A program made the translations under genes and the position numbers. The notes under the pieces are model-generated. The model saw nothing but the letters and a program-made list of their open reading frames with translations. It made no database searches and had not been told where the DNA came from. Positions 6,346 through 59,218 of a stretch of 64,000 bases of DNA are shown piece by piece (positions within the stretch are counted from its first letter, which is position 1; every line of letters begins with the position of its first letter). The stretch lies in the IMG/VR virus record IMGVR_UViG_3300035492_000225. One strand, written 5' to 3'. The DNA is from a virus.

Positions 6346-6966
6346 TTACTCTATGGTTTCACCTGGTAATGTGAAGTTCCAGGTCATTGTTTCCAGGCCC
6401 GTTCTATCACTGTTGTTGAACATGTCGTACAGCTGTCTTTCAAGTGCATGTCTCTGTGCTGTAAGATGCGCCATGGCTGGTGCAAATAACGCATCATTCT
6501 CTAACACCCTTTGCTTTAGATGACCTAATCCACCAGGTACACCTACACCGTCACGAGCATTGCTTAGATCATAGAGAAAAGGACATACGTCCCTTGGAAT
6601 GTCTTCGATGCTCGATCCAGGGTTTGCCTCCAACCATTCATCAATAGCCTTGGCTTCCTGCAGCTGAACAGTCCATGTAATAGCTTCTGATAACGGGTAG
6701 GTTGATTTTAGGTCCTGGATGATATTCTCATAATCCAAGTTGAGTTCTCCTGTACGAAGCAGGAGAAGATCAAAAAGACCCATCTTTTCTACCGGAGTAC
6801 TTGGTGGTATCGTGACAGGTTTACCATTGGCTAAGTTGGAAAGACTATATCCATTTTCTAGATCAGCAATGATCTGGTTGTATTCTTCATCGGTTACAGC
6901 CACACCATCCTGCCAAAGGTTGTGTGTCTGATTGAAGACCTTGTTCCGTTTGGAGAAATACCACAT
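6346..6966 (-). CDS. Putative tail-fibre assembly/chaperone-like protein
   Basis: N-terminus MWYFSK..VF...EYNQIIADLENG...GKPV resembles Tfa-type proteins; lies in the fibre island. Confidence 0.5.
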   Translation of the reverse strand: MWYFSKRNKVFNQTHNLWQDGVAVTDEEYNQIIADLENGYSLSNLANGKPVTIPPSTPVEKMGLFDLLLLRTGELNLDYENIIQDLKSTYPLSEAITWTVQLQEAKAIDEWLEANPGSSIEDIPRDVCPFLYDLSNARDGVGVPGGLGHLKQRVLENDALFAPAMAHLTAQRHALERQLYDMFNNSDRTGLETMTWNFTLPGETIE

Positions 6967-6978
6967 GCATCATCCCCT

Positions 6979-7368
6979 TTAATATCCGGTGACCTTTACC
7001 ATAACTGTAACACTACCTGCCAACACCACCGACTCACCTCGTAGAAAAAATGATGTCCCTTTAACTACAGAACCTGTCATTGATGTCAATGATACTGAGT
7101 TGATGGTAGCCATTACTTGTTCTTCGGCGGCCTGCGAACTGGAGATTGCCTGAGGACTGACGTGTAGAATCTCACTAAATCCTGCGTTCGAGTAGTTAAA
7201 TGTATAAGTCCCATTAACTGAAGTGACCGCACCGTACCATTCTTTCAAAGGTCTATTTATCTCACCCGATGATGATGATACGGTTCTCCATTTTCGTTTC
7301 AGTTCTTTGTTTACACTCTCTGTAAGTCGAGAGATGCTTTTTGCAAGTGCTGAAATATTTCCTGCCAT
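6979..7368 (-). CDS. Putative tail-fibre-associated protein
   Basis: S/T/G-rich beta-type sequence (WYGAVTSVNGTYTFNYSNAGF); genomic context. Confidence 0.45.
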   Translation of the reverse strand: MAGNISALAKSISRLTESVNKELKRKWRTVSSSSGEINRPLKEWYGAVTSVNGTYTFNYSNAGFSEILHVSPQAISSSQAAEEQVMATINSVSLTSMTGSVVKGTSFFLRGESVVLAGSVTVMVKVTGY

Positions 7369-7402
7369 ATTTCACCTGTACGTCACGCGGTCGGCATAAT
7401 AG

Positions 7403-7433
7403 ACCTGACTGAGAGAATGACTCTCAGTCAGGT
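7403..7433. terminator. 13-bp hairpin
   Basis: acctgactgagag-aatga-ctctcagtcaggt; no long U-run. Confidence 0.6.
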
Positions 7434-7437
7434 GGAG

Positions 7438-7548
7438 TAGCACAGGCGCCGTGGGTACATACGACGTCTCTCGACATTGCTAATTACCCTGAGAGGAAAG
7501 AGTGGACTGGATCACCCCCTTACGAGTAGACTGAGTCTACCTGTGCTA
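7438..7548 (-). ncRNA. Candidate structured ncRNA/leader
   Basis: Closing stem tagcacagg/cctgtgcta; internal gggta/taccc, ctctc/gagag and gtagac/gtctac pairings; strand assumed from neighbours. Confidence 0.5.
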
Positions 7549-7587
7549 TAGGATAGGTGATATCATTGCCATCATGTATCAACGAGT

Positions 7588-8040
7588 TTATTTCCAGTAG
7601 AACCCACCGAATACTCGAACGCCCAAGAAGAAGATACCTGCTCTCCAGCGAGCGATACCCTCACTGCGCAGTGCACGGTAGAAGATCTCATCGGCCTTTT
7701 TGCGATCGATGTTTTGGTCGGAAGTGCCTTTGTTCACATACAGGTAGTCGTGAACAGTGGCTGAGCGATCACCGTAACCAGCCAGAAGTGCATACAGACC
7801 GAAAAGCAAGACGTTCTTCAGAGCACCGATGGTAGCGAAGTCCGTTTTGAACTCTTTAGGTACGACGATTGGACCGAATTCTTCATCGAAGTACGTAAAG
7901 TCACGCAGGAGCTTACGTTCATTGCGATCGATGTACGATACTTCGAAGGAAGTAAAGCTGGTATTGGACTCATGTCCGTTATATTTAGGTAAAATATCCA
8001 CAGTGTATTTCTCTACGTTGTTAGGACATAGAATCGGCAT
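7588..8040 (-). CDS. DUF1353-like protein
   Basis: IVVPKEFKTDFATI...SATVHDYLY...RKKADEIFYRAL...G pattern; start codon uncertain (ATG lies in a hairpin). Confidence 0.8.
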   Translation of the reverse strand: MPILCPNNVEKYTVDILPKYNGHESNTSFTSFEVSYIDRNERKLLRDFTYFDEEFGPIVVPKEFKTDFATIGALKNVLLFGLYALLAGYGDRSATVHDYLYVNKGTSDQNIDRKKADEIFYRALRSEGIARWRAGIFFLGVRVFGGFYWK

Positions 8041-8065
8041 AGAGAGGAGGGGTGTCCCTCCTCTC
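8037..8065. repeat. CATAGAGAGG-family hairpin (truncated right arm)
   Basis: gcatagagaggaggg-gtgt-ccctcctctc. Confidence 0.75.
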
Positions 8066-8071
8066 CTTTAT

Positions 8072-8851
8072 TCACCGACGCTTGAGTAGTGCTATCATCC
8101 AAGCAGCTGTATCGAATTCCCACCACTTTTCCTTGATCGACTGACGACCTGGGTATCTGTGGTGGTTGTTGTGCCAACCTGCGCAACCAAAGCTGAACAG
8201 ATGCATCCAGATGGAATTCTGCGATTTATCCATCGTAACGAAATTTCGATAGGTAAAGGGCAACTTGACATGAAGACCGATGTTCTGGATAGTGGACATA
8301 ATAGGTGCCAGAGCCCACGGGAGAATAACGGCGAAGAAAGCGCCATTGACTCCAAATGGAATCGCCCACATCAGGAACCAGGCAACCATCCAAAGCACGT
8401 AGTACTTGTGCAGTGACCGATGCAGTGGATCTGCTAACAGACCTCTGGAACTGTGCAATGTACCGATGTTGGGATAACGCCACAGGAGCATATCGAGTAC
8501 AGAACTGTGATGTGGACTATGTGGGTCTAGAGGACTGTCGACATGGACGTGATGTGCCTTATGGAGAGCCGCCCAGCCGGCCGTTGAGCCTGTTCCCGGT
8601 ACGACGCTAGCCAGAATAGCCAACGTGTATTCTACGGGCTTATAGAGCTCGTACGTACGATGTGCGCACCAGCGATGAAGGTAGGCTTCGATCAGTACCA
8701 CATTGAAGACGACTACGATCGCCAACGTGACCCAAAGCCACTGCCAATCGAGGTCAGTGGTGAAAGGCAGTACGATAAGTGCAATAAGGCCGACCAGCAT
8801 CTGCCCGACCATGAACTCACCTCGAGAGCGGGTGATCTCCCAGAATGTCAT
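8072..8851 (-). CDS. Membrane fatty-acid desaturase (delta-9/DesC-OLE1-like), copy 2
   Basis: Three His boxes HRWCAH, HKAHH, HNNHH plus hydrophobic TM segments; start at 8851 behind AAGGAG. Confidence 0.9.
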   Translation of the reverse strand: MTFWEITRSRGEFMVGQMLVGLIALIVLPFTTDLDWQWLWVTLAIVVVFNVVLIEAYLHRWCAHRTYELYKPVEYTLAILASVVPGTGSTAGWAALHKAHHVHVDSPLDPHSPHHSSVLDMLLWRYPNIGTLHSSRGLLADPLHRSLHKYYVLWMVAWFLMWAIPFGVNGAFFAVILPWALAPIMSTIQNIGLHVKLPFTYRNFVTMDKSQNSIWMHLFSFGCAGWHNNHHRYPGRQSIKEKWWEFDTAAWMIALLKRR

Positions 8852-8856
8852 ATCAA

Positions 8857-9609
8857 CTACTCCTTGATTTTGATTAGACGAATAAACCAAGCAACGGGAT
8901 CGAGTTCCCACTTGGAATTACTTAGATTCCAACGACCAGGGTATTTGTGATGGGTGTTGTGTAGTCCTTCACCACCAAACAGAATTGCCAACAACTTAGA
9001 GTTGGTTGATTTGTCGCCGGTGTCATACGTTTGGTATCCGAACCAATGAATGGCTTTGATGCCGATGAACAACCGTGCCCATTGGACAGCAATAACGGGG
9101 ATCGCCCATACATACACCAGTAGATCAAAGTCAATCAACGCCAGAATAGACATGTACCCAAGTGGATAAAGCAATCCGTACTTCGATGCTCGTTTGGAAT
9201 ACGGATCCTTGGCCAGCTGTCGCAACTGCGCTCGAGTCAACTGACTGCCCTTATAACGGGTGGTGAACGAAAACAGTTGTTTACCATAGTGAAACAGATA
9301 AGGGTCTTTCTCTGTATCCGAGTACTTGTGATGTGCTTGATGGAGAAAGGTATACAGACCCGGATTGTTCATCACCGAACACATGGTCACAGTAAACAAG
9401 ACTTCTTCCCAGAAACGGGTGGTCTTGAACGAGCGATGACAGAAGTACCGATGCAAAGCCGCTGAGAATCCGATGCACCAATAGACCTCAAATGCAACGA
9501 AGCTAGCGATCAGCATCATGGGCTGGAAGTCAGTAATAACGGAATAAAGCGTCAGACTGACTGCAAACCACGTCAGAACTCTTAACGCTCTAGAATTCAT
9601 ATCCCACAT
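8857..9609 (-). CDS. Membrane fatty-acid desaturase (delta-9/DesC-OLE1-like), copy 1
   Basis: His boxes HRYFCH, HQAHH, GEGLHNTHH and terminal WELDP; TGATG coupling to the upstream gene. Confidence 0.92.
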   Translation of the reverse strand: MWDMNSRALRVLTWFAVSLTLYSVITDFQPMMLIASFVAFEVYWCIGFSAALHRYFCHRSFKTTRFWEEVLFTVTMCSVMNNPGLYTFLHQAHHKYSDTEKDPYLFHYGKQLFSFTTRYKGSQLTRAQLRQLAKDPYSKRASKYGLLYPLGYMSILALIDFDLLVYVWAIPVIAVQWARLFIGIKAIHWFGYQTYDTGDKSTNSKLLAILFGGEGLHNTHHKYPGRWNLSNSKWELDPVAWFIRLIKIKE

Positions 9610-10574
9610 CAATATTCTCCTAACTCGCTCAGCAGGTACTCGCAGGTACGTTCTGCAATGAACTCTGGATTTTCGATGGCCTGGTTGAGTTGAATGCGAA
9701 GCACTGCGCGGTCTGGATAGGTGCCCAGTTGAGCACGACCCAACTGACTCATGTCAAGGAACTGTACATGGCCGACGCCAGTGTAATTGGCTTCACCTAC
9801 TGGGAACGAGCTAACAAAGGCATTGCCATTACTCGAACCGGTACCGAATCGCATCATGAGGCGTGAATAATTCTCATGACTGCAGTCGATCTTGTAGAAC
9901 CCATTTTCATCCAGAGAACCACACCCGTAGAGTGAGTAATGACCAAAATGATCTTCGAACCCTGGAATGATTTTGGTCGTCAGGATGTTAGGGTTTCCCA
10001 GTGCTCGACCAAATGCAGTGGCCAGTAATTCCTGAACCCGAATACCATACTTCTTGGCATGGTTTTTAACGATATCGAAATCGATATCAAAAGAAAAATC
10101 GACTGACCGTCCACGAATACCGACAAACGGCTTCACCCGTAGTGTATCTGGGCCTGTTGGTCTGACCTTTGGTGCGGGGTAACCACATTTGTATTCATCG
10201 CGCAGGCTTCCACCCTCAGCCAGCCGCATGATTTCAGTCATCACAAACTTCCATGACCACCCATCGATGAGGTCATGAGAGAACACCAGGTTATAACCAT
10301 CGTCATTTTCGATGATCTTACCGCAGGTAGGTGCCATAATGAAATCTTCTACCTTACCCTTACCCACAGTAACCTTATCAGCATAAATGATCTTGCCCCG
10401 GCGAATAGTTCCTCGCATAAGAGGTATCCGCTGAGAGAGTTCTTGAGCGACTTCGCCCACTTCAGCAAGTGAGGTATGAAACTTGGGAATGACAACGCTA
10501 CCCGATGTCATATCAAGTCCCTTTCCATAGAACGCTTGCTGCATCAATGTTGGTTTTTCTTGTAACGTTGCCAT
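9609..10574 (-). CDS. Stand-alone condensation-domain/CoA-dependent acyltransferase-like protein
   Basis: PTLMQQAFY (C1-like), RIPLMRGTI (C2-like), FSHDLIDGWSW (HHxxxDG-like C3). Confidence 0.7.
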   Translation of the reverse strand: MATLQEKPTLMQQAFYGKGLDMTSGSVVIPKFHTSLAEVGEVAQELSQRIPLMRGTIRRGKIIYADKVTVGKGKVEDFIMAPTCGKIIENDDGYNLVFSHDLIDGWSWKFVMTEIMRLAEGGSLRDEYKCGYPAPKVRPTGPDTLRVKPFVGIRGRSVDFSFDIDFDIVKNHAKKYGIRVQELLATAFGRALGNPNILTTKIIPGFEDHFGHYSLYGCGSLDENGFYKIDCSHENYSRLMMRFGTGSSNGNAFVSSFPVGEANYTGVGHVQFLDMSQLGRAQLGTYPDRAVLRIQLNQAIENPEFIAERTCEYLLSELGEY

Positions 10575-10595
10575 ATTTGCTCCTTGGGTTATAAA

Positions 10596-10621
10596 TCAGG
10601 GTAGGGTTTCCCCTACCCTGA
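10596..10621. terminator. Hairpin
   Basis: tcagggtaggg-tttc-ccctaccctga between 10574 and 10631. Confidence 0.6.
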
Positions 10622-10630
10622 CATACTTAC

Positions 10631-11296
10631 TTAGGTCCAGAACTCAGGTGAGAAGATCGGGATGAGGTCATAACGTTCACGGGCGATGGAGGGCTCACCC
10701 GCTTCTGCAATGAATTCGTCAACACCAACCTGATACATGTACATGACAAACGCATCTTCGGTGGTATTGTTGGTGATAACATAGTCAATCGGTTGAGTAA
10801 GACTCAAGTGTTGGAAAAGATTGTAGTCGTTACTACCAATGGTGATACCACCTTCAACAACAAACAGATGACGCTGCATTCCTGGTCGATCGTGGGTGAT
10901 GGTTATTGATTCACCGGGTGCCAGTGGGTAGTTGGTTTGCAGGAAAATACCTTCAGATGGATCTCGCAGAGTCACGCACCAGAACTCATTATACTCATCC
11001 AGACCCTTGAAACCAGCTCCACCTTCAGTTGCCCAACGTACCGGTGTCATCTGCTCCCCACGTTCACGGGTGAATGGGGCGTTGCCATGGGGGGTGATTT
11101 CGATATGACCTCTGACAAAGGCATTGGCCCTGTACGTATTGAAACCGAGTTTGTCATTGGGAGCTGGCAATCGACAAATGGGTGGTACGTTGGTCGGAGT
11201 GTTGTTGAATTCATTCTGACCGAGTACCAGACGAGTGACAATGAATTTGGATGCGACGAGTTTAACTGTCCATGGGTTTTCTTTGAATATATTCAT
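10631..11296 (-). CDS. Hypothetical protein, possibly cupin-like beta fold
   Basis: RHLFVVEGGITIG-type beta strands; fold is inference. Confidence 0.6.
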   Translation of the reverse strand: MNIFKENPWTVKLVASKFIVTRLVLGQNEFNNTPTNVPPICRLPAPNDKLGFNTYRANAFVRGHIEITPHGNAPFTRERGEQMTPVRWATEGGAGFKGLDEYNEFWCVTLRDPSEGIFLQTNYPLAPGESITITHDRPGMQRHLFVVEGGITIGSNDYNLFQHLSLTQPIDYVITNNTTEDAFVMYMYQVGVDEFIAEAGEPSIARERYDLIPIFSPEFWT

Positions 11297-11826
11297 CAGA
11301 TGAATCCTATTGTTCTGGTGTTACCTGCTGCGAGACTGGTGTAGACACCTGAAATGGTGGCAGTACCCAGTACGTAAGTATTACCCGATTTATCAGTCGT
11401 CACCGAGAACGTCATACTGTACTCGGTGCCATTATAAACAACTTTAGTCCAGCCTGGAGTCGTCGTCCCGTTTAGATAAACCCTGAGAGAATTCTGGAAT
11501 GTTGAAGTAGACACCACTTTACGAATTGTCCGGCCGTTATAGCTATTATTGCTGATCGAACCATACGAACCTGTTGTTAGCGCGTTGTCATCTGTGACAA
11601 TCCCGTCGCTAAAACCACGTATAGTTGCATAAACGCCGGATGCTTGTGCCGAGGTAATGGTTCGAGTGCTGAAGGCACTCTTATTGCGTAGATCGGTGAG
11701 TTTGATTGGACCTGAAGCGATACCTGCCAGAGAACGGACCAAGGGATCCGTCAATTTGAAACGACCAGTTATCCCAAGCTCTGTGGCGACATCGCTCATT
11801 TTGATGGCACCGGTTGGAGTCGTCAT
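11296..11826 (-). CDS. Putative tail-tip/adhesin-associated protein
   Basis: N-terminal TPTGAIKMSDVATELG...VRSLAG..SGPIKLTDL motif of the kind seen next to S74-capped fibres; S/T/G-rich body. Confidence 0.55.
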   Translation of the reverse strand: MTTPTGAIKMSDVATELGITGRFKLTDPLVRSLAGIASGPIKLTDLRNKSAFSTRTITSAQASGVYATIRGFSDGIVTDDNALTTGSYGSISNNSYNGRTIRKVVSTSTFQNSLRVYLNGTTTPGWTKVVYNGTEYSMTFSVTTDKSGNTYVLGTATISGVYTSLAAGNTRTIGFI

Positions 11827-11828
11827 GA

Positions 11829-12050
11829 TCAGATCTCCTCACTGTCACCAATGCCGATGACGGGTTGTGCATTGGTCAACCCAGTGAGACGTGCATGAGC
11901 AACACCAGCCAGGAAGGCGTGTGCATTGCTTTCAAATGAATCGATGTTGTCAGGCAGCTCGCAGTTCTGAGTGGCGATCTCGTTCTCACCATAGGTAACG
12001 ACAAAGCGACCATCTGGTAGGATGGTCTGTACTTCTTTGATAAATGCCAT
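11829..12050 (-). CDS. Small hypothetical protein (73 aa)
   Basis: ATG 12050 behind GAGG; the longer ORF-track start runs into a terminator. Confidence 0.6.
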   Translation of the reverse strand: MAFIKEVQTILPDGRFVVTYGENEIATQNCELPDNIDSFESNAHAFLAGVAHARLTGLTNAQPVIGIGDSEEI

Positions 12051-12094
12051 GATTGGATCCTCGTCTATTTCATAGGGTACTGGCGAGTGGTATG

Positions 12095-12123
12095 AAAAAA
12101 CTAGGGAGGGGATGTCCCCTCCC
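12095..12123 (-). terminator. Intrinsic terminator after the tail fibre gene
   Basis: gggagggga-tg-tcccctccc followed by U6 on the minus strand. Confidence 0.75.
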
Positions 12124-12135
12124 ATTTATGCTGAA

Positions 12136-15100
12136 TTACTTAGTGATGAGGGCTCGGAGTTCAGCCATTTCGCCACGAAGTGCATTGAGTTCGACTCGAA
12201 GATCATCGATCTCTTTGTCCTTCTCTGATTTCAGTTCTTTCAGCGCCTCTACCAACAGAGGTACAACTCGACCCAGGTTGAACGTCAGGTAATTCTCACC
12301 AGAGATGGAATTACCGTTTTCATCACGATCGAAACCAGCAATACTGACTGCTTCAGGCAATACCTTCTGAACGTCTTGAGCCGACAGAGATACCACACGG
12401 GCGTCGGTATCAAAACCTGCCATTGCAACAGCTTCAGGTGTCCAGCTATAGACAAAGCCATTCAACTGCATGACCTTAGACAGAGCATCATCCAGGTAGA
12501 CGATGTCTTTCTTCAGTCGCATGTCAGAAGCACCAGCCTCTACGTCGGTAGTCGCGAAGAGATTGGTAACATACAGATCACCATCGTAGTTAAGGCGAGT
12601 GGTGTTCGACGGAGCAGTAGTACCACCATACATCTTACCAGCGACCTTGGTGGTGCCGTTATACTTAATGGCACCTGCTGTAGTAGAACCAGCCGCGATG
12701 TCGGTAATAGACACGCCACTGGTATCAGCAGTAATACCGACGTTACCAGAAACGCTGAAGGTAGTACCACTCAAACCGATGCCAGCTCCAGCCGAATAAG
12801 TGGTGTTGGTGTCAGTGGCATTGATAGTCAGGTTGGGGTACGTGCCACTGATTGACACGTTAGTGCCACCAGTCAGACTGACGTTACTCAATCCATCTAG
12901 CTTCGACTTGTCTGACGCAGTCAATACACCTGCCAGCGATGTGGTAGCAGCTGGTAGGGTGGCATTGGTACCGGTAGAGCTAACAACAGTCAAAGTGCTC
13001 GCAGCAGTGCTAACAGACAAGTTAGTTGCTACGTTTACCTGAGCGCCAGCTGCGATGCCATCGAGCTTGGTTTTATCAGCAGAAGTCAGTACCCCGGCGA
13101 GGGAAGTAGTCGCAGCCGGAAGAGCCACGTTACTACCAGTAGAACTGGTCACTGTTACTGCGGTGGTGGTGCGACTTACACCCAGGTTGGTAGCGACGTT
13201 TACCTGCGCACCAGTTTCGATACCATTCAGTTTCGTCAAAAGAGCGGTAGTGAACTCCTCACCAGATAGACTGAACGCAGTGCCAGACAGACTCAAACCG
13301 GTGCCTGCGGTGTACGTAGTGTTAGTATCTGTCGAGTTGATAGTGATGCTCTGACCTGATTGACTGATACTGACATTGCTACCAGCCAACAGAGTGACAT
13401 CACCACTGACATAACTACCTGCTGCCGTACCACGGAGACGATTGGCGGTCGCTCCAGTAGCAACACCATCAAGCTTGGTTTTATCAGCAGACGACATCAC
13501 ACCAGCAAGCGAGGTAGTCGCTGCTGCCAGCGCAATATTGCTTCCGGTGGAGCTGTTGACTGTTACAGTACCTGTCGCATAGGTGGCCGACAAGTCGGTC
13601 GCTACGTTCACCTGTGCGCCAGCGGCGATACCGTCGAGTTTGCTCTTGTCTGAACTGGTCATCAATCCAGCTAGAGTTGTGGTTGCAGCTGCAAGTGAAG
13701 TATTAGAACCTGTACTGGATGTGATAGAATAAGTAGTCGATGTCCGGCTACTACCCAAGTTAGTTGCAACGTTGACTTGCGCCCCGGCTTCAATACCGTT
13801 CAATTTGTTCAGATGTGTGGTCGTGAACGATTCGCCAGTCAGACTGAACTCACCGGCGAGCAGCGTGATGCCAGACCCAGCAGTATAGACACCACCAGTA
13901 CTGGCTGAAATAGTAAGATTTGGATAAGTCCCAGAAATGGTGACGTTTGGACCGGCTACGAGGTTGACGTTACTCAGACCATTCAACCTCTCATTGGCTA
14001 CCGACCCACTCCACCAAGCTTCTGTAGCCTGGCGTACTCGGAGAGACGACCACTTGCGGTCAGTGGTAGCTACACCGGCTTCAGCCTCAGTTTGAGATAC
14101 ACTGGACGCATTCCATTGCCGAGAATCGGTCAATCGAGTATCACTGCCTTTTACCACTTGAGAAGTGGTAGCATTGCCAGTAGAAGCAACATCCAGCAAT
14201 GCGGCAGTACCTAGATCAGCAGAGTTTGCTTTCTGCCCGATCTGAGTCATCATGTTATTGATGACATCCGGGTCGTTGTTCAGCGCCGCTGCCAATTCAT
14301 ACACGGTATCGAGAGCTGCTGGCGCTGTACCAACCAATTCCGATACTTTATTGTCGGTATAATTCTGCCACTGAGTCTGAAGGTCAGTAATATGCTGGCC
14401 GTCAATAAGGTCAGCATTCAATCCACTGGCTGGACCGTCGACCGTTAGGATCTTGGTCAGGATTTCTGCAGCAGTGTCATTGACTTGCGCACCGGCTTCA
14501 ATACCGTTCAGCTTGACCTTGTCTGCGGCCGTCATGACACCAGCTAAGGTTGTTGTCGCAGCCGACAAAGTTGCATTGGTTCCAGTGGAACTATTGACAG
14601 TCAGTGTCGAAGCAGCGGTACTGGTGGTCAGGTTAGTTGCCACGTTAGCCTGAGCGCCAGATGCAATACCGTCCAACTTAGCCTTATCCGCTGCAGTCAT
14701 GACACCAGCCAGAGTCTGGGTCGCTGCTGCCATAGTGGCATCGGTTCCGGTGGAACTATTAATCGCTACAGTCGAAGCGGCTGGCACTGTGGTGATGTTA
14801 GTGCCGACGTTCACTTGCGCGCCAGCTTCGATACCATCGAGTTTGGTTTTGTCACTTGCAGTGAGTACACCAGCCTGCGTGGTAGTTACTGCCGGAATGA
14901 CAGCGTCAGTACCAGTAGAACTGGCTACTGTCACCTCAGATGCACTGAGCGATACACTGAGATCAGCTGCTACGTTGACTTGAGCACCTGTCTCGATACC
15001 AGCGAGTTTGGTCTGTTCAGCAGCTGAATACGATACTCCACTCAGCGAGAACTCACTCCCGGTCAAACTGAGACCGGTACCTGCGGTGTACGTGGTGTTA

Positions 15101-16680
15101 GTATCTGTAGCCGAGATTTCCAGGTTGGGGAAAGTACCGGAGATAGTGATGTTAGTGCCTGCAGCGAGGTTAACATTCTCCAGACTATCCAACTTGGTTT
15201 TGTCTGTAGTTCCAGCCCACCATGCAGCGATGGCTTGTCGTACGCGTTGAGCAGTCCATTTACGAGCGGTGGTAGCAGTACCCGCCTCCGCTTCAGTCTG
15301 AGATACAATCGAAGCATTCCAATCACGGGTGTTGGTCAGACGACTATCATCACCCATGACTACCTGCGCAGTAGTCGCGTTAATGCCGGTGCCGGGCACA
15401 TCTTTATAAGCCGCACTACCGAGGTCGCCAGGCTGCACTGCACTGACTGCCAGAGTACCTTGAGCAGAGGTGGCAAAGGAAGATGCGTGCATACCGTCGA
15501 GCAAATCAGCATTCAGTCCAGAGCCAGGTCCGTCAACAGTGAGTAACTTCTGAAGCACATCGGCAGCGGTGTAGCTACCACTGTCCAGTTTCTGACCCAG
15601 TTGAGTCAGGATATTGTTGATCACATCCGGGTCGTTGTTCAGCGCCGTAGCGATCTCATTGATGGTGTCCAGAGTTTCAGGTGCTGTACCGATAAGATCG
15701 CTGATAGCGCTATCGGTGTATGCTTGCCACAATGCCTGAATGGCGGCCAATTGCTGGCCATCGAGCGTATCTGCATCAAGCCCAGAACCAGGACCATCCA
15801 CTGTCTTGATCTTGGTCAGGAGTTGCGCTGCAGTGTCATTGACCTGAGCGCCGCTGGAGATACTGTCGAGTTTTTCTTTATCGACCGCAGCCATCAGACC
15901 CGCTAGAAAGACAGTCGCTGAAGCGATGTCGATGCTGGTGCCAGTGCTGCTGGCGATGGTCATCTTGACATTGTTGTTGGCTGAAATGCTAAGATCAGTA
16001 CCCACGTTGACTTGCGCACCGGCTTCGATCCCAGTCAGTTTAGTCTTCTCAGCAGAGGTGTAATCGTTGCTGGACAACCCTTTACCGACCTCTACATTGA
16101 CTTTACCATCTTGCAACAATTTACCTTGAGCGGCAGTCAGCGCCTGGGTAGTGCTGGTACTGGTCAGTGTATTGTTGAGTTGGAGCAGACCTGTCTGAGT
16201 TGTACTACCAGCACGGATAGCCACCGTGCTGACTGATGTGATTCGACCTTTACTGTCGACATTCAACACCGGTACGGTGATATTGCTGCCATAACTACCA
16301 GCTGTAGCACCGGAATTAGGGAAGCGTGCCAGAGAGAATTCACCAGCACCGATCTTACTGGCATTCAGCGATGGGATGTCGGACTCAACAAGAGTACCAG
16401 TACCGATGATCTGACCACCTGCATTGTATTGTACTTTGGTGGCCCAGCCTGTACCTACGCCAGTTGGTGTCAGTGTGACTGGGATGGTAACGTCAGCACT
16501 ACCATCGATATCCACATTACCTGTCAAAGGACCGGTCAAACTGATGTTGAACGTATCGTTCAAACGAGATGCGCTCTCGGCATTCTCAGTTCTACCCAAC
16601 TTACCGTCTATTTTAGTAGACAATAAACTGAAAAGCTGATCGAGTTTATCTTTCAGCGCATTGATTTTCTGTAATGACAT
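12136..16680 (-). CDS. Long tail fibre protein with C-terminal S74-type intramolecular chaperone
   Basis: T/A/S/G-rich repeats (DKTKLDGIEAGAQVNVATNL...), GLDADTLDG motifs, SDMRLKKDI...LNGFVYSW domain and terminal coiled coil. Confidence 0.9.
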   Translation of the reverse strand: MSLQKINALKDKLDQLFSLLSTKIDGKLGRTENAESASRLNDTFNISLTGPLTGNVDIDGSADVTIPVTLTPTGVGTGWATKVQYNAGGQIIGTGTLVESDIPSLNASKIGAGEFSLARFPNSGATAGSYGSNITVPVLNVDSKGRITSVSTVAIRAGSTTQTGLLQLNNTLTSTSTTQALTAAQGKLLQDGKVNVEVGKGLSSNDYTSAEKTKLTGIEAGAQVNVGTDLSISANNNVKMTIASSTGTSIDIASATVFLAGLMAAVDKEKLDSISSGAQVNDTAAQLLTKIKTVDGPGSGLDADTLDGQQLAAIQALWQAYTDSAISDLIGTAPETLDTINEIATALNNDPDVINNILTQLGQKLDSGSYTAADVLQKLLTVDGPGSGLNADLLDGMHASSFATSAQGTLAVSAVQPGDLGSAAYKDVPGTGINATTAQVVMGDDSRLTNTRDWNASIVSQTEAEAGTATTARKWTAQRVRQAIAAWWAGTTDKTKLDSLENVNLAAGTNITISGTFPNLEISATDTNTTYTAGTGLSLTGSEFSLSGVSYSAAEQTKLAGIETGAQVNVAADLSVSLSASEVTVASSTGTDAVIPAVTTTQAGVLTASDKTKLDGIEAGAQVNVGTNITTVPAASTVAINSSTGTDATMAAATQTLAGVMTAADKAKLDGIASGAQANVATNLTTSTAASTLTVNSSTGTNATLSAATTTLAGVMTAADKVKLNGIEAGAQVNDTAAEILTKILTVDGPASGLNADLIDGQHITDLQTQWQNYTDNKVSELVGTAPAALDTVYELAAALNNDPDVINNMMTQIGQKANSADLGTAALLDVASTGNATTSQVVKGSDTRLTDSRQWNASSVSQTEAEAGVATTDRKWSSLRVRQATEAWWSGSVANERLNGLSNVNLVAGPNVTISGTYPNLTISASTGGVYTAGSGITLLAGEFSLTGESFTTTHLNKLNGIEAGAQVNVATNLGSSRTSTTYSITSSTGSNTSLAAATTTLAGLMTSSDKSKLDGIAAGAQVNVATDLSATYATGTVTVNSSTGSNIALAAATTSLAGVMSSADKTKLDGVATGATANRLRGTAAGSYVSGDVTLLAGSNVSISQSGQSITINSTDTNTTYTAGTGLSLSGTAFSLSGEEFTTALLTKLNGIETGAQVNVATNLGVSRTTTAVTVTSSTGSNVALPAATTSLAGVLTSADKTKLDGIAAGAQVNVATNLSVSTAASTLTVVSSTGTNATLPAATTSLAGVLTASDKSKLDGLSNVSLTGGTNVSISGTYPNLTINATDTNTTYSAGAGIGLSGTTFSVSGNVGITADTSGVSITDIAAGSTTAGAIKYNGTTKVAGKMYGGTTAPSNTTRLNYDGDLYVTNLFATTDVEAGASDMRLKKDIVYLDDALSKVMQLNGFVYSWTPEAVAMAGFDTDARVVSLSAQDVQKVLPEAVSIAGFDRDENGNSISGENYLTFNLGRVVPLLVEALKELKSEKDKEIDDLRVELNALRGEMAELRALITK
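13860..15850 (-). repeat. Internal duplications in the tail fibre gene (two large blocks plus ~50-aa units)
   Basis: catccgggtcgttgttcagcgccg occurs near 14265 and 15625; AQVNV...AATTTLAGV..AADK unit recurs many times; bounds approximate. Confidence 0.8.
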
Positions 16681-58918: not shown

Positions 58919-59006
58919 TGGCAGAAGCGGTGAGATTAGAACTCACGGACCCGTTAGAGTCGACGACCTTCAAGGTCGCTCCATTAAACCACTCTGGCAC
59001 GCTTCT
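58919..59006 (-). tRNA. trnS: tRNA-Ser (UGA), CCA encoded
   Basis: AGAAGCG/CGCTTCT acceptor, G73, anticodon loop CT-TGA-AG, long variable arm, T-loop TTCTAAT. Confidence 0.9.
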
Positions 59007-59015
59007 ATATTTAAG

Positions 59016-59128
59016 ATCGATGACCCAAGTTACGGGTAATGGGCACCACCCCTACTGACGTCATTACAAGGTTTTAATCCCCATAACAACCATGTACACA
59101 TTGGCGTCAGTCAAGGCCAGTCATCGAT
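59016..59128 (-). ncRNA. Candidate structured RNA between the tRNAs
   Basis: 9-bp closing stem atcgatgac/gtcatcgat; internal actgacg/cgtcagt. Confidence 0.5.
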
Positions 59129-59133
59129 ACTAC

Positions 59134-59218
59134 TGGTACCCGAAGCCGGACTCGAACCGGCACGCTTTACAGCAGGGAATTTTAAATACCCAACGTCTAC
59201 CAATTTCGTCATTCGGGT
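59134..59218 (-). tRNA. trnL: tRNA-Leu (UAA), CCA encoded
   Basis: ACCCGAA/TTCGGGT acceptor, A73, loop TT-TAA-AA, GGTTCGAGTCC T-arm. Confidence 0.93.

Follow-up and report, generated by a model that had tools for sequence, protein, structure and literature searches.

The window analysed here, a 64,000-nt stretch of viral DNA (IMG/VR record IMGVR_UViG_3300035492_000225), carries four co-oriented ORFs on its minus strand. All four are real genes and encode two desaturases (Des1 and Des2), a condensation-like protein (C) and a predicted bicupin (D) (Table 1). The close packing described in the first-pass annotation is correct: the C stop codon and the Des2 start codon share the sequence TGATG, and the gap between Des2 and Des1 is 5 nt. 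Its placement of the genes between tail-fibre genes holds for the upstream side, with a 1514-aa S74 fibre and two small fibre-accessory genes; the downstream neighbour is a DUF1353 gene. The operon also reaches beyond the four genes first noted, to a cassette-specific gene of 73 aa (p73). The candidate cassette would comprise p73, an adhesin-like protein (p176 in the window), the putative bicupin D, two or three desaturases and C, directly behind an S74-type fibre.

Table 1. Genes and hairpins of the desaturase locus and its flanks, by position in the window
Feature	Position	Strand	Description
DUF1353 gene	7588-8040	-	PF07087; TtaP phospholipase A2 family
Hairpin	8042-8065	-	10-bp GC-rich; occupies the Des1-DUF1353 intergenic gap
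Des1	8072-8851	-	259 aa; SCD/DesC-type desaturase, divergent clade c
Des2	8857-9609	-	250 aa; SCD/DesC-type di-iron membrane desaturase, clade b
C	9609-10574	-	321 aa; stand-alone miniature condensation-superfamily (CAT-like, two-lobed) protein, predicted fold
Hairpin	10596-10621	-	11-bp GC-rich, GAAA loop, within the 56-nt D-C spacer
D	10631-11296	-	221 aa; soluble protein, predicted bicupin
p176	11296-11826	-	Adhesin- or fibre-tip-like protein
p73	11829-12050	-	Small acidic protein
Hairpin + T-run	12104-12123	-	GC-rich, terminator-like, directly after the fibre stop codon
Tail fibre	12136-16680	-	1514 aa; repeats and C-terminal Peptidase_S74

Alignment of orthologues places the start of Des1 at the ATG at 8851, not at the GTG at 8911, and that of Des2 at the ATG at 9609. 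D is translationally coupled to p176 in the window, its start overlapping the p176 stop codon (ATGA). In the D-C spacer the hairpin precedes TTTAT and a ribosome-binding site, AAGGAG. The hairpin in front of the DUF1353 gene has GGAGG in its 5′ arm and, in one wastewater strain, TTTTT inserted beside it, and the one behind the fibre overlaps a spurious 5′ extension of the 98-aa ORF annotated for p73. A scan for sigma-70 promoters performed no better than on shuffled sequences; these phages use their own RNA polymerases, which limits the relevance of such a scan. Contigs of a close strain from the wastewater metagenomes of another study bridge the DUF1353-Des1-Des2 and Des2-C-D junctions; the gene arrangement is therefore not an assembly artefact. 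Between strains, the enzyme genes are conserved, and p73 and p176 are variable.

Judged by sequence, Des1 and Des2 are SCD/DesC-type membrane desaturases. Both exceed the gathering cut-off of Pfam FA_desaturase (PF00487; Des1 36.6 bits and Des2 63.3 bits vs 29.7) and contain all eight His-box histidines, in line with the initial description of two complete three-His-box enzymes. The boxes (HRxxxH / HxxHH / HNxHH; HRWCxH and CAGWHNNHH in Des1) are also intact in the relatives, with the eight histidines invariant in 22 cassette desaturases. The desaturase profile matches SCD1 of mouse (E 5e-24) and of human (E 7e-22), and the aligned region takes in all His boxes. With SCD1 (PDB 4YMK, 4ZYO) and the bacterial DesC/DesA-type first desaturases the phage proteins share the three boxes, paired transmembrane hairpins and the signatures "HHxxSDTxxDP" and "GEGxHNNHH". 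Kyte-Doolittle analysis, a crude method, puts hairpin segments on the flanks of the boxes (Des1 13-56 and 159-188; Des2 31-49 and 150-182), with a weakly hydrophobic TM1 in Des2. Unlike those enzymes, however, the phage proteins are short (250-260 aa) and score below the DesA equivalog cut-off (NCBIfam NF049918: 67 vs 400 bits, covering profile positions 8-232 of 385). Desaturases of GenBank phages are only 23-26% identical to them. The 22 sequences fall into three well-supported paralogue clades (100/100, 100/99 and 92/93), of which clade b, that of Des2, occurs in every cassette examined; all three are present in L016 and L017. Des1 and Des2, from two of these clades, would be functionally distinct integral-membrane, O2-dependent di-iron acyl desaturases.

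For C, the earlier label "condensation-like" gained substance from an invariant H100-xxx-D104-G105 motif and from the predicted fold, which together support its assignment as a miniature member of the condensation-domain (CAT-like) acyltransferase superfamily. The three motif residues are invariant in 11 members of the family; at the position of the first His of HHxxxDG these proteins carry S, T, R or D, which is also the case in HxxxD-type members. The AF2 model (pLDDT 76) consists of two CAT-like lobes arranged as a V-shaped pseudodimer. Foldseek matched it to NRPS C/Cy domains, WS/DGAT and BAHD (E 1e-13 to 1e-10, probability 1.0), and VIA-align superimposed ~300 of the 321 residues on C/Cy domains at Z 19-22, with lipoinitiation starter-C domains and PapA5 (Z 18.6) also among the matches; for the PapA5, WS/DGAT and starter-C proteins Z was 18-19. 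The Atlas structure search gave TM ~0.8 to stand-alone condensation-superfamily acyltransferases. Pfam yielded no match at E <= 0.1, including PF00668, PF16911, PF03007 and PF02458; in a reverse profile search the C family found NRPS C domains weakly (E 5e-6 to 3e-4), and three of its five weak profile matches were Pfam Condensation domains. The likeness to PapA5, WS/DGAT and starter C domains (CDA-C1, RzmA), which acylate hydroxyl or amino acceptors with fatty acyl groups taken from CoA or carrier proteins, lies in the predicted two-lobed CAT-like fold with HxxxDG between the lobes. The phage protein differs in being ~100 aa shorter than known C domains (321 vs about 400-450 aa) and in lacking a Pfam match, the first His and a nearby carrier-protein gene. 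Its shortness, the missing Pfam match and the replaced His were counted against a role of C in a pathway.

The fourth protein, D, had been described as beta-rich and cupin-like, and its AF2 model (pLDDT 84) specifies this as a predicted bicupin fold with two tandem double-stranded beta-helix barrels. Foldseek and VIA-align related the model to BacB, HutD and pirin at Z 10.7-10.8 (10.8 for BacB, 10.7 for HutD and YhhW; 157-171 residues aligned), and the Atlas search agrees. Nine aligned family members have no invariant His and lack the cupin metal-binding His/Glu motif; the invariant residues are Arg, Asn and Tyr. D carries no catalytic signature and is not a canonical metal cupin. Most likely it would bind or isomerise a polar acceptor or product; alternatively, it could have a structural or binding role in association with the fibre. 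The D family comprises 19 clusters, with the cassette present in every context read. Comparisons with hhalign found no relation of D to the L011 proteins of 185 and 207 aa or to the 221-aa protein adjoining a marine phage desaturase.

All related loci are metagenome-derived, which was counted against the pathway reading; three complete carrier genomes, G001 (a 108-kb phage), G002 and G003, were analysed. Out of 1.84 billion proteins, about 13 represent the C family, in phage contexts only. Every context of C and D that was read is phage DNA with the same gene set: an S74 tail fibre, a small protein, an adhesin-like protein, D, two or three desaturases and C, with the desaturase/C order varying between loci. 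Co-conservation of the genes, chosen beforehand as a test on which the proposal could fail, was thus found throughout. Against GenBank phages, neither megablast of positions 7500-12200 nor tblastn of C and D returned a match. Viral relatives of C came to light with an alignment-based scan, and none with a single-sequence one. A pattern-based scan detected no member of the C family in 185,579 species genomes, and a JGI metagenome scan returned solely the 108-kb contig. The cassette resides in phiKZ-like jumbo phages and in the complete genome G001, which lacks the one jumbo marker protein tested; G002 and G003 have this marker at 57-58% identity. The trees of C and D agree and place the window with the non-jumbo cassettes of L001, L002 and L018, not with its jumbo relatives (support 97/99 and 100/100). 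From this congruence and grouping it follows that the cassette moves as a unit. In the nearest cultured relative, a jumbo phage, the fibre is directly followed by DUF1353 and the cassette is absent. A link to the early-infection vesicle of phiKZ, suggested in the first-pass annotation, was rejected on account of this absence and of the presence of the cassette in a complete phage without the tested jumbo marker.

Profile searches of the three complete carrier genomes, with positive controls, found no match to PF00550 (ACP/PP-binding) or PF00501 (AMP-ligase) and none to the 2Fe-2S ferredoxin (Fer2) or rubredoxin families; scanning the window for rubredoxin, ferredoxin and ACP motifs, a weak method, also gave nothing. 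The previous statement that no ACP or fatty acyl-AMP ligase is visible therefore extends to these three genomes, and with the ferredoxin and rubredoxin families missing from them as well, host acyl and electron donors would be needed. Condensation-superfamily enzymes normally require a carrier-protein or CoA donor, and that none is encoded by the phage for C was counted against a pathway. Polyyne and alkyne clusters of the JamABC type comprise an acyl-AMP ligase, an ACP and desaturases. The locus resembles them in its tandem membrane desaturases beside an acyl-processing enzyme and differs in that neither the window region nor the three carrier genomes contain a FAAL or ACP. The comparison with polyyne pathways drawn initially fails on these two components, and membership in such clusters was rejected for want of PF00501 and PF00550 matches in the three genomes.

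The best, if unproven, reading of these data is a phage pathway for remodelling lipids or for making an unsaturated acyl group to be transferred, and we lean towards a phage-only, horizontally moving cassette for multi-step acyl-chain tailoring instead of a single fluidity gene. Such a pathway would be co-expressed with the fibre genes, work on the cytoplasmic side of the host inner membrane and draw acyl chains and electrons from the host. C may be a soluble PapA5/WS-DGAT-type acyltransferase in which the His of HxxxDG catalyses transfer of a thioester-activated acyl chain, donated by host acyl-ACP or acyl-CoA, onto a hydroxyl or amino acceptor, and the product would be a di- or poly-unsaturated acyl lipid or acylated product, presumably to the benefit of the phage.

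The genes could also be independent auxiliary functions in a post-fibre cargo region that is swapped as a block, the desaturases raising host phospholipid unsaturation, and hence fluidity, and C, D and p73 having unrelated roles, for example in fibre assembly or binding. Single phage desaturases are established: the cyanophage vFADs (Roitman et al. 2018, PMC5776448) occur as single genes, and their Delta9 activity was shown on C16 lipids. These and other single phage FA_desaturase genes share with Des1 and Des2 the phage setting, the three His boxes and the reliance on host acyl substrates and electron donors. Desaturases without cassette partners occur in the marine phages L012-L014, DUF1353 is itself fibre-adjacent cargo without desaturases, and the N-domain of p176 belongs to a general fibre/adhesin module. 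The coupling of D to p176 in the window and the hairpin that parts it from C point the same way; they too were counted against a pathway, as was the co-location behind fibre genes, which could reflect a cargo hotspot. However, one Delta9 desaturase suffices for fluidity in the cyanophage case, whereas here two or three divergent paralogues are retained, locked to the condensation-fold protein, the bicupin and the 73-aa protein behind a fibre. C and D never occur without desaturases in the contexts read, despite internal rearrangements, their trees are congruent, and the predicted acyltransferase fold of C suits lipid chemistry, not fibre assembly. We therefore regard independent genes as unlikely.

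The DUF1353 gene scores 58.3 bits against PF07087 (cut-off 22.5), and H97, D98 and D117 are invariant in the aligned proteins. Phage databases name this family "tail assembly chaperone"; PLA2 activity has been proven for its founding member, TtaP, whose catalytic residues are H70, D71 and D85 (PMC11525133). The product of the flanking gene, a putative PLA2, resembles TtaP in the PF07087 match and the His-Asp...Asp catalytic pattern; in L001 the spacing of the catalytic residues equals that of TtaP, as mapped by motif and not by direct TtaP alignment. The PLA2 link of the family was made with HHpred (PMC11525133); our DUF1353 profile had no match among PDB sequences, and the link was therefore not reproduced. 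In the window, L001, L004/6/7/8 and L009, DUF1353 lies immediately beside the cassette, an arrangement that would suit a Lands-cycle-like deacylation/reacylation in which sn-2 acyl chains freed by the PLA2 are edited by the desaturases and then re-esterified by C. We consider this scheme very improbable, as free fatty acids would need host activation before use by C, and as the gene is not cassette-specific: it follows fibres directly in many phages without desaturases, is absent genome-wide from G001, and in L002, L016 and L018 the genes after the cassette are unrelated to DUF1353 by hhalign or blastp. Not being cassette-specific, it was rejected as a core member of the cassette, of which it is an optional neighbour.

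The 1514-aa fibre contains Peptidase_S74 (PF13884; E 2e-12, residues 1385-1445), an intramolecular-chaperone domain, and sub-threshold Phage_fiber_rpt (23.9 bits vs a cut-off of 27). An S74 fibre precedes the cassette in every locus long enough (L001, L002, L004, L011, L016, L017 and L018). p73 starts at M26 of the 98-aa ORF (orthologues 71-78 aa), ends in a conserved EEI/EEL and, in the sampled viral loci, was detected only where the cassette is present. p176 combines a conserved N-terminal anchor motif (~50 aa) that is widespread in phages, including 26 other viral loci without the cassette, with a variable C-terminal part that differs between strains; its N-domain thus appears to be a general fibre/adhesin module.

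The product of the enzymes could modify the virion adhesin or fibre by lipidation of p176, p73 or the fibre tip, or the enzymes could alter an envelope lipid so that infected cells and debris stop binding phages that use this fibre (receptor masking or superinfection exclusion). This is a doubtful proposal, and we likewise give little credence to its more specific form, a polyunsaturated acyl product functionally tied to the co-transferred fibre and adhesin, either as a lipid on the adhesin, p73 or fibre tip or as a tailored envelope lipid controlling adsorption or superinfection. The S74 fibre, p73 and a p176-type adhesin are present in every long-enough locus, across at least two phage lineages and 25-55% protein identity, fibre genes and enzymes occur together in both lineages, p73 is confined to cassette-bearing loci of the sample, and receptor-blocking genes can adjoin receptor-binding genes, for example T5 llp beside pb5. 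Membrane-buried acyl chains, on the other hand, are poor targets for masking a fibre receptor, and the predicted site of action of the desaturases and C is cytoplasmic-facing. Terminator-like hairpins part the fibre, p73-p176-D and C-Des2-Des1 from each other, p73 has no acceptor signature and no ACP signature (no PF00550 match in G001-G003), and we know of no condensation-superfamily enzyme that acylates a folded protein.

Phage lipid genes have so far been single desaturases, read as membrane-fluidity helpers. New here is the association of two or three desaturases with a phage-only, miniature protein of predicted condensation type and a predicted bicupin, a set that unrelated phage lineages have exchanged as one unit, always along with a particular type of tail fibre. 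The flanking gene puts in question the routine label "tail assembly chaperone" of fibre-adjacent DUF1353 genes, a family with a proven PLA2 member. If the cassette is a pathway, phages would perform multi-step acyl-lipid chemistry in the infected cell, and the cassette would offer a new acyltransferase scaffold of compact size, as well as a connection of lipid chemistry with host recognition that can be tested. Should its product indeed be tied to the fibre, phages would encode a small lipid biosynthetic pathway within a host-recognition module.

The region 8072-11296 is filled by four minus-strand genes, all in the same orientation, which encode two desaturases (Des1 and Des2) and two further proteins, here denoted C and D; true gene starts were set via orthologue alignment. 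The junctions described in the first-pass annotation were borne out: TGATG is an overlap of the C stop with the Des2 start, and the gap between Des2 and Des1 is five bases long. The G+C content of this cassette is similar to that of the remainder of the window. The window DNA is present at full length in tar-pit metagenome runs, from which it probably originates, and wastewater metagenomes from a separate study contain a related strain with mostly 90-99% identity. Because contigs of the wastewater strain span DUF1353-Des1-Des2 and Des2-C-D, the gene arrangement is not an assembly artefact.

Genes and hairpins in and around the desaturase cassette (window positions)
Feature	Coordinates	Strand	Remarks
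129-aa ORF	6979-7368		just downstream of DUF1353
DUF1353 gene	7588-8040	-	
Hairpin between Des1 and DUF1353	8042-8065		GC-rich; GGAGG directly before DUF1353 start codon
Des1	8072-8851	-	259 aa; start is ATG 8851, upstream GTG discarded (orthologue alignment)
Des2	8857-9609	-	250 aa; start from orthologue alignment
C	9609-10574	-	321 aa
Hairpin between D and C	10596-10621		GC-rich
D	10631-11296	-	221 aa
"98-aa" ORF	11829-12125		
Hairpin after fibre	12104-12123		GC-rich
Fibre gene	12136-16680		

Both desaturases passed Pfam FA_desaturase, and neither qualified as a DesA equivalog in NCBIfam. The desaturase profile matched structures of stearoyl-CoA desaturase 1 (E 5e-24) across the entire catalytic core. 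In the alignment both proteins carry the motifs HRxxxH, HxxHH and HNxHH; the SCD/DesC-type signatures HHxxSDTxxDP and GEGxHNNHH are found in the cassette desaturases, and hydropathy indicates two TM hairpins. A tree of 22 desaturases resolved three well-supported clades (a, b and c, with Des2 in b and Des1 in c), and none of the eight His-box histidines varies among the 22 sequences. Clade b is represented in every locus, while a and c are each kept or lost, varying by locus: two loci (L016 and L017) have all three in the order D-a-b-C-c, and the window has D-C-b-c. Single desaturases are already known from phages, and one family has been characterized (PMC5776448). A single-gene state, contrasting with the cassette, was also seen in L012-L014, large, phage-like marine metagenome contigs of 146-311 kb, where short desaturases (244 aa) of a distant clade, ~33% identical to Des2, stand alone next to an SDR-like gene, a glutaredoxin and an unrelated 221-aa ORF.

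Protein C had no match in a Pfam search. Its predicted structure (AF2, pLDDT 76) matches, over nearly the full length, condensation and cyclisation domains of NRPS, starter-C domains, PapA5, WS/DGAT and BAHD (Foldseek E down to 7.5e-13; VIA-align Z 19-22; Atlas TM ~0.8), and H100-xxx-D104-G105 is invariant in the alignment of C relatives. When 1.84 billion representatives were searched exhaustively with a profile, ~13 family members were recovered and, beyond these, only five weak matches, three of which are Pfam Condensation domains of NRPS megasynthases. D is predicted to be a bicupin (model pLDDT 84), with BacB, HutD and pirin as best structural matches (Z 10.7-10.8). The alignment of the D family shows several invariant residues (Arg, Asn and Tyr) but no conserved histidine, so D cannot be classed as a canonical metal cupin.

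All contexts of C and D homologues that we read are phage DNA with a common layout: a Peptidase_S74 fibre, a ~73-aa protein (p73), an adhesin-like protein of ~160-200 aa (p176 type), D, two or three desaturases, and C. Two loci deviate, one being too short for the fibre side (L009) and the other having no detected D homologue (L011). The window matches this layout once its "98-aa" ORF is trimmed to 73 aa. That ORF is probably an over-extension, its orthologues having 71-78 aa; within it, the ATG at 12050 has a GAGGA ahead of it, and the ORF's initial 25 codons overlap a terminator-like hairpin. The order within the cassette varies by locus and the contiguity of the genes is kept. At its N-terminus, p176 carries a general fibre/adhesin module of phages, found also in 26 further viral loci that lack the cassette; in the same sample of viral loci p73, D, C and the desaturases occur only together. 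That these are independent auxiliary genes gathered in a common cargo hotspot is an unlikely explanation.

The window belongs to a phiKZ-like jumbo phage: it encodes internal head proteins and the phrog_3248 virion protein, and its closest GenBank relative is Pseudomonas phage pPa_SNUABM_DT01 (55% protein identity). Two minus-strand phage tRNA genes, tRNA-Ser(TGA) and tRNA-Leu(TAA), lie at 58919-59218. Among three complete phage genomes with the cassette (G001-G003), G001 is a 108-kb phage with terminal repeats that is missing the jumbo marker protein, which is found in G002 and G003 at 57-58% identity. The C and D trees are congruent, and in both the window falls with L001, L002 and L018, which are non-jumbo cassettes, and separately from its jumbo relatives. 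The nearest relative in culture has DUF1353 directly after the fibre and lacks the cassette. Together, carriage by G001, the placement in both trees and the cassette-less relative point to transfer as a unit, and the cassette appears to have been gained and exchanged as a block with its fibre genes. A function coupled to the fibre, such as adhesin lipidation or receptor masking, seems quite improbable.

When the tar-pit strain is compared with those from wastewater, p176 is skipped or replaced over its middle and C-terminal portion (11379-11602) and ~110 nt of p73 (11849-11962) have diverged at equal length, a pattern typical of host-range determinants. Unlike these, Des1, Des2 and C are ~97-99% identical in the contigs listed. 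Several skip/go-back joints lie inside the repetitive fibre gene, over 12995-16124 of the window, in both tar-pit and wastewater contigs, which fits repeat-number variation or assembly collapse of repeats.

Three GC-rich hairpins of 8-11 bp partition the array into fibre, p73-p176-D, C-Des2-Des1 and DUF1353, and the last of them may sequester the DUF1353 ribosome-binding site. The DUF1353 gene is labelled "tail assembly chaperone" in PHROGs and RefSeq. TtaP, the founding characterized member of the family, has proven phospholipase A2 activity, its catalytic residues being H70, D71 and D85 (PMC11525133); H97, D98 and D117 are kept in the window protein and its orthologues. DUF1353 follows the fibre genes in many desaturase-free phages and was not found in the complete genome G001; it is an optional neighbour outside the cassette core. 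An acyl-editing cycle based on PLA2 is weakened by this absence from G001 and is very unlikely. In RefSeq, the chaperone label is given to DUF1353 genes that immediately follow tail-fibre genes, e.g., in NC_022096 (PaBG), NC_041880 (phiPMW) and NC_042091 (nickie), and it may rest on gene position and be wrong in many phages. The 129-aa ORF is a strain-variable gene: wastewater depth drops from ~65 to ~4 in the region 6937-7427, wastewater contigs terminate at 7401 in dissimilar sequence, and small indels are concentrated at 7420-7506.

Our literature search found no paper on this cassette, and C and D occurred in no cultured phage of the collection searched. ACP, AMP-ligase, Fer2 and rubredoxin families had no match in the three complete carriers, with control genomes positive; acyl chains and electrons would thus have to come from host donors. 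Judging from protein families and linkage, the reading with the most support is that the cassette encodes a pathway tailoring acyl chains in several steps, on the cytoplasmic side of the inner membrane. In such a pathway, the separate desaturase paralogues would place different double bonds, C would move a thioester-activated acyl chain onto a hydroxyl or amino acceptor, and D would bind or isomerise the polar partner.
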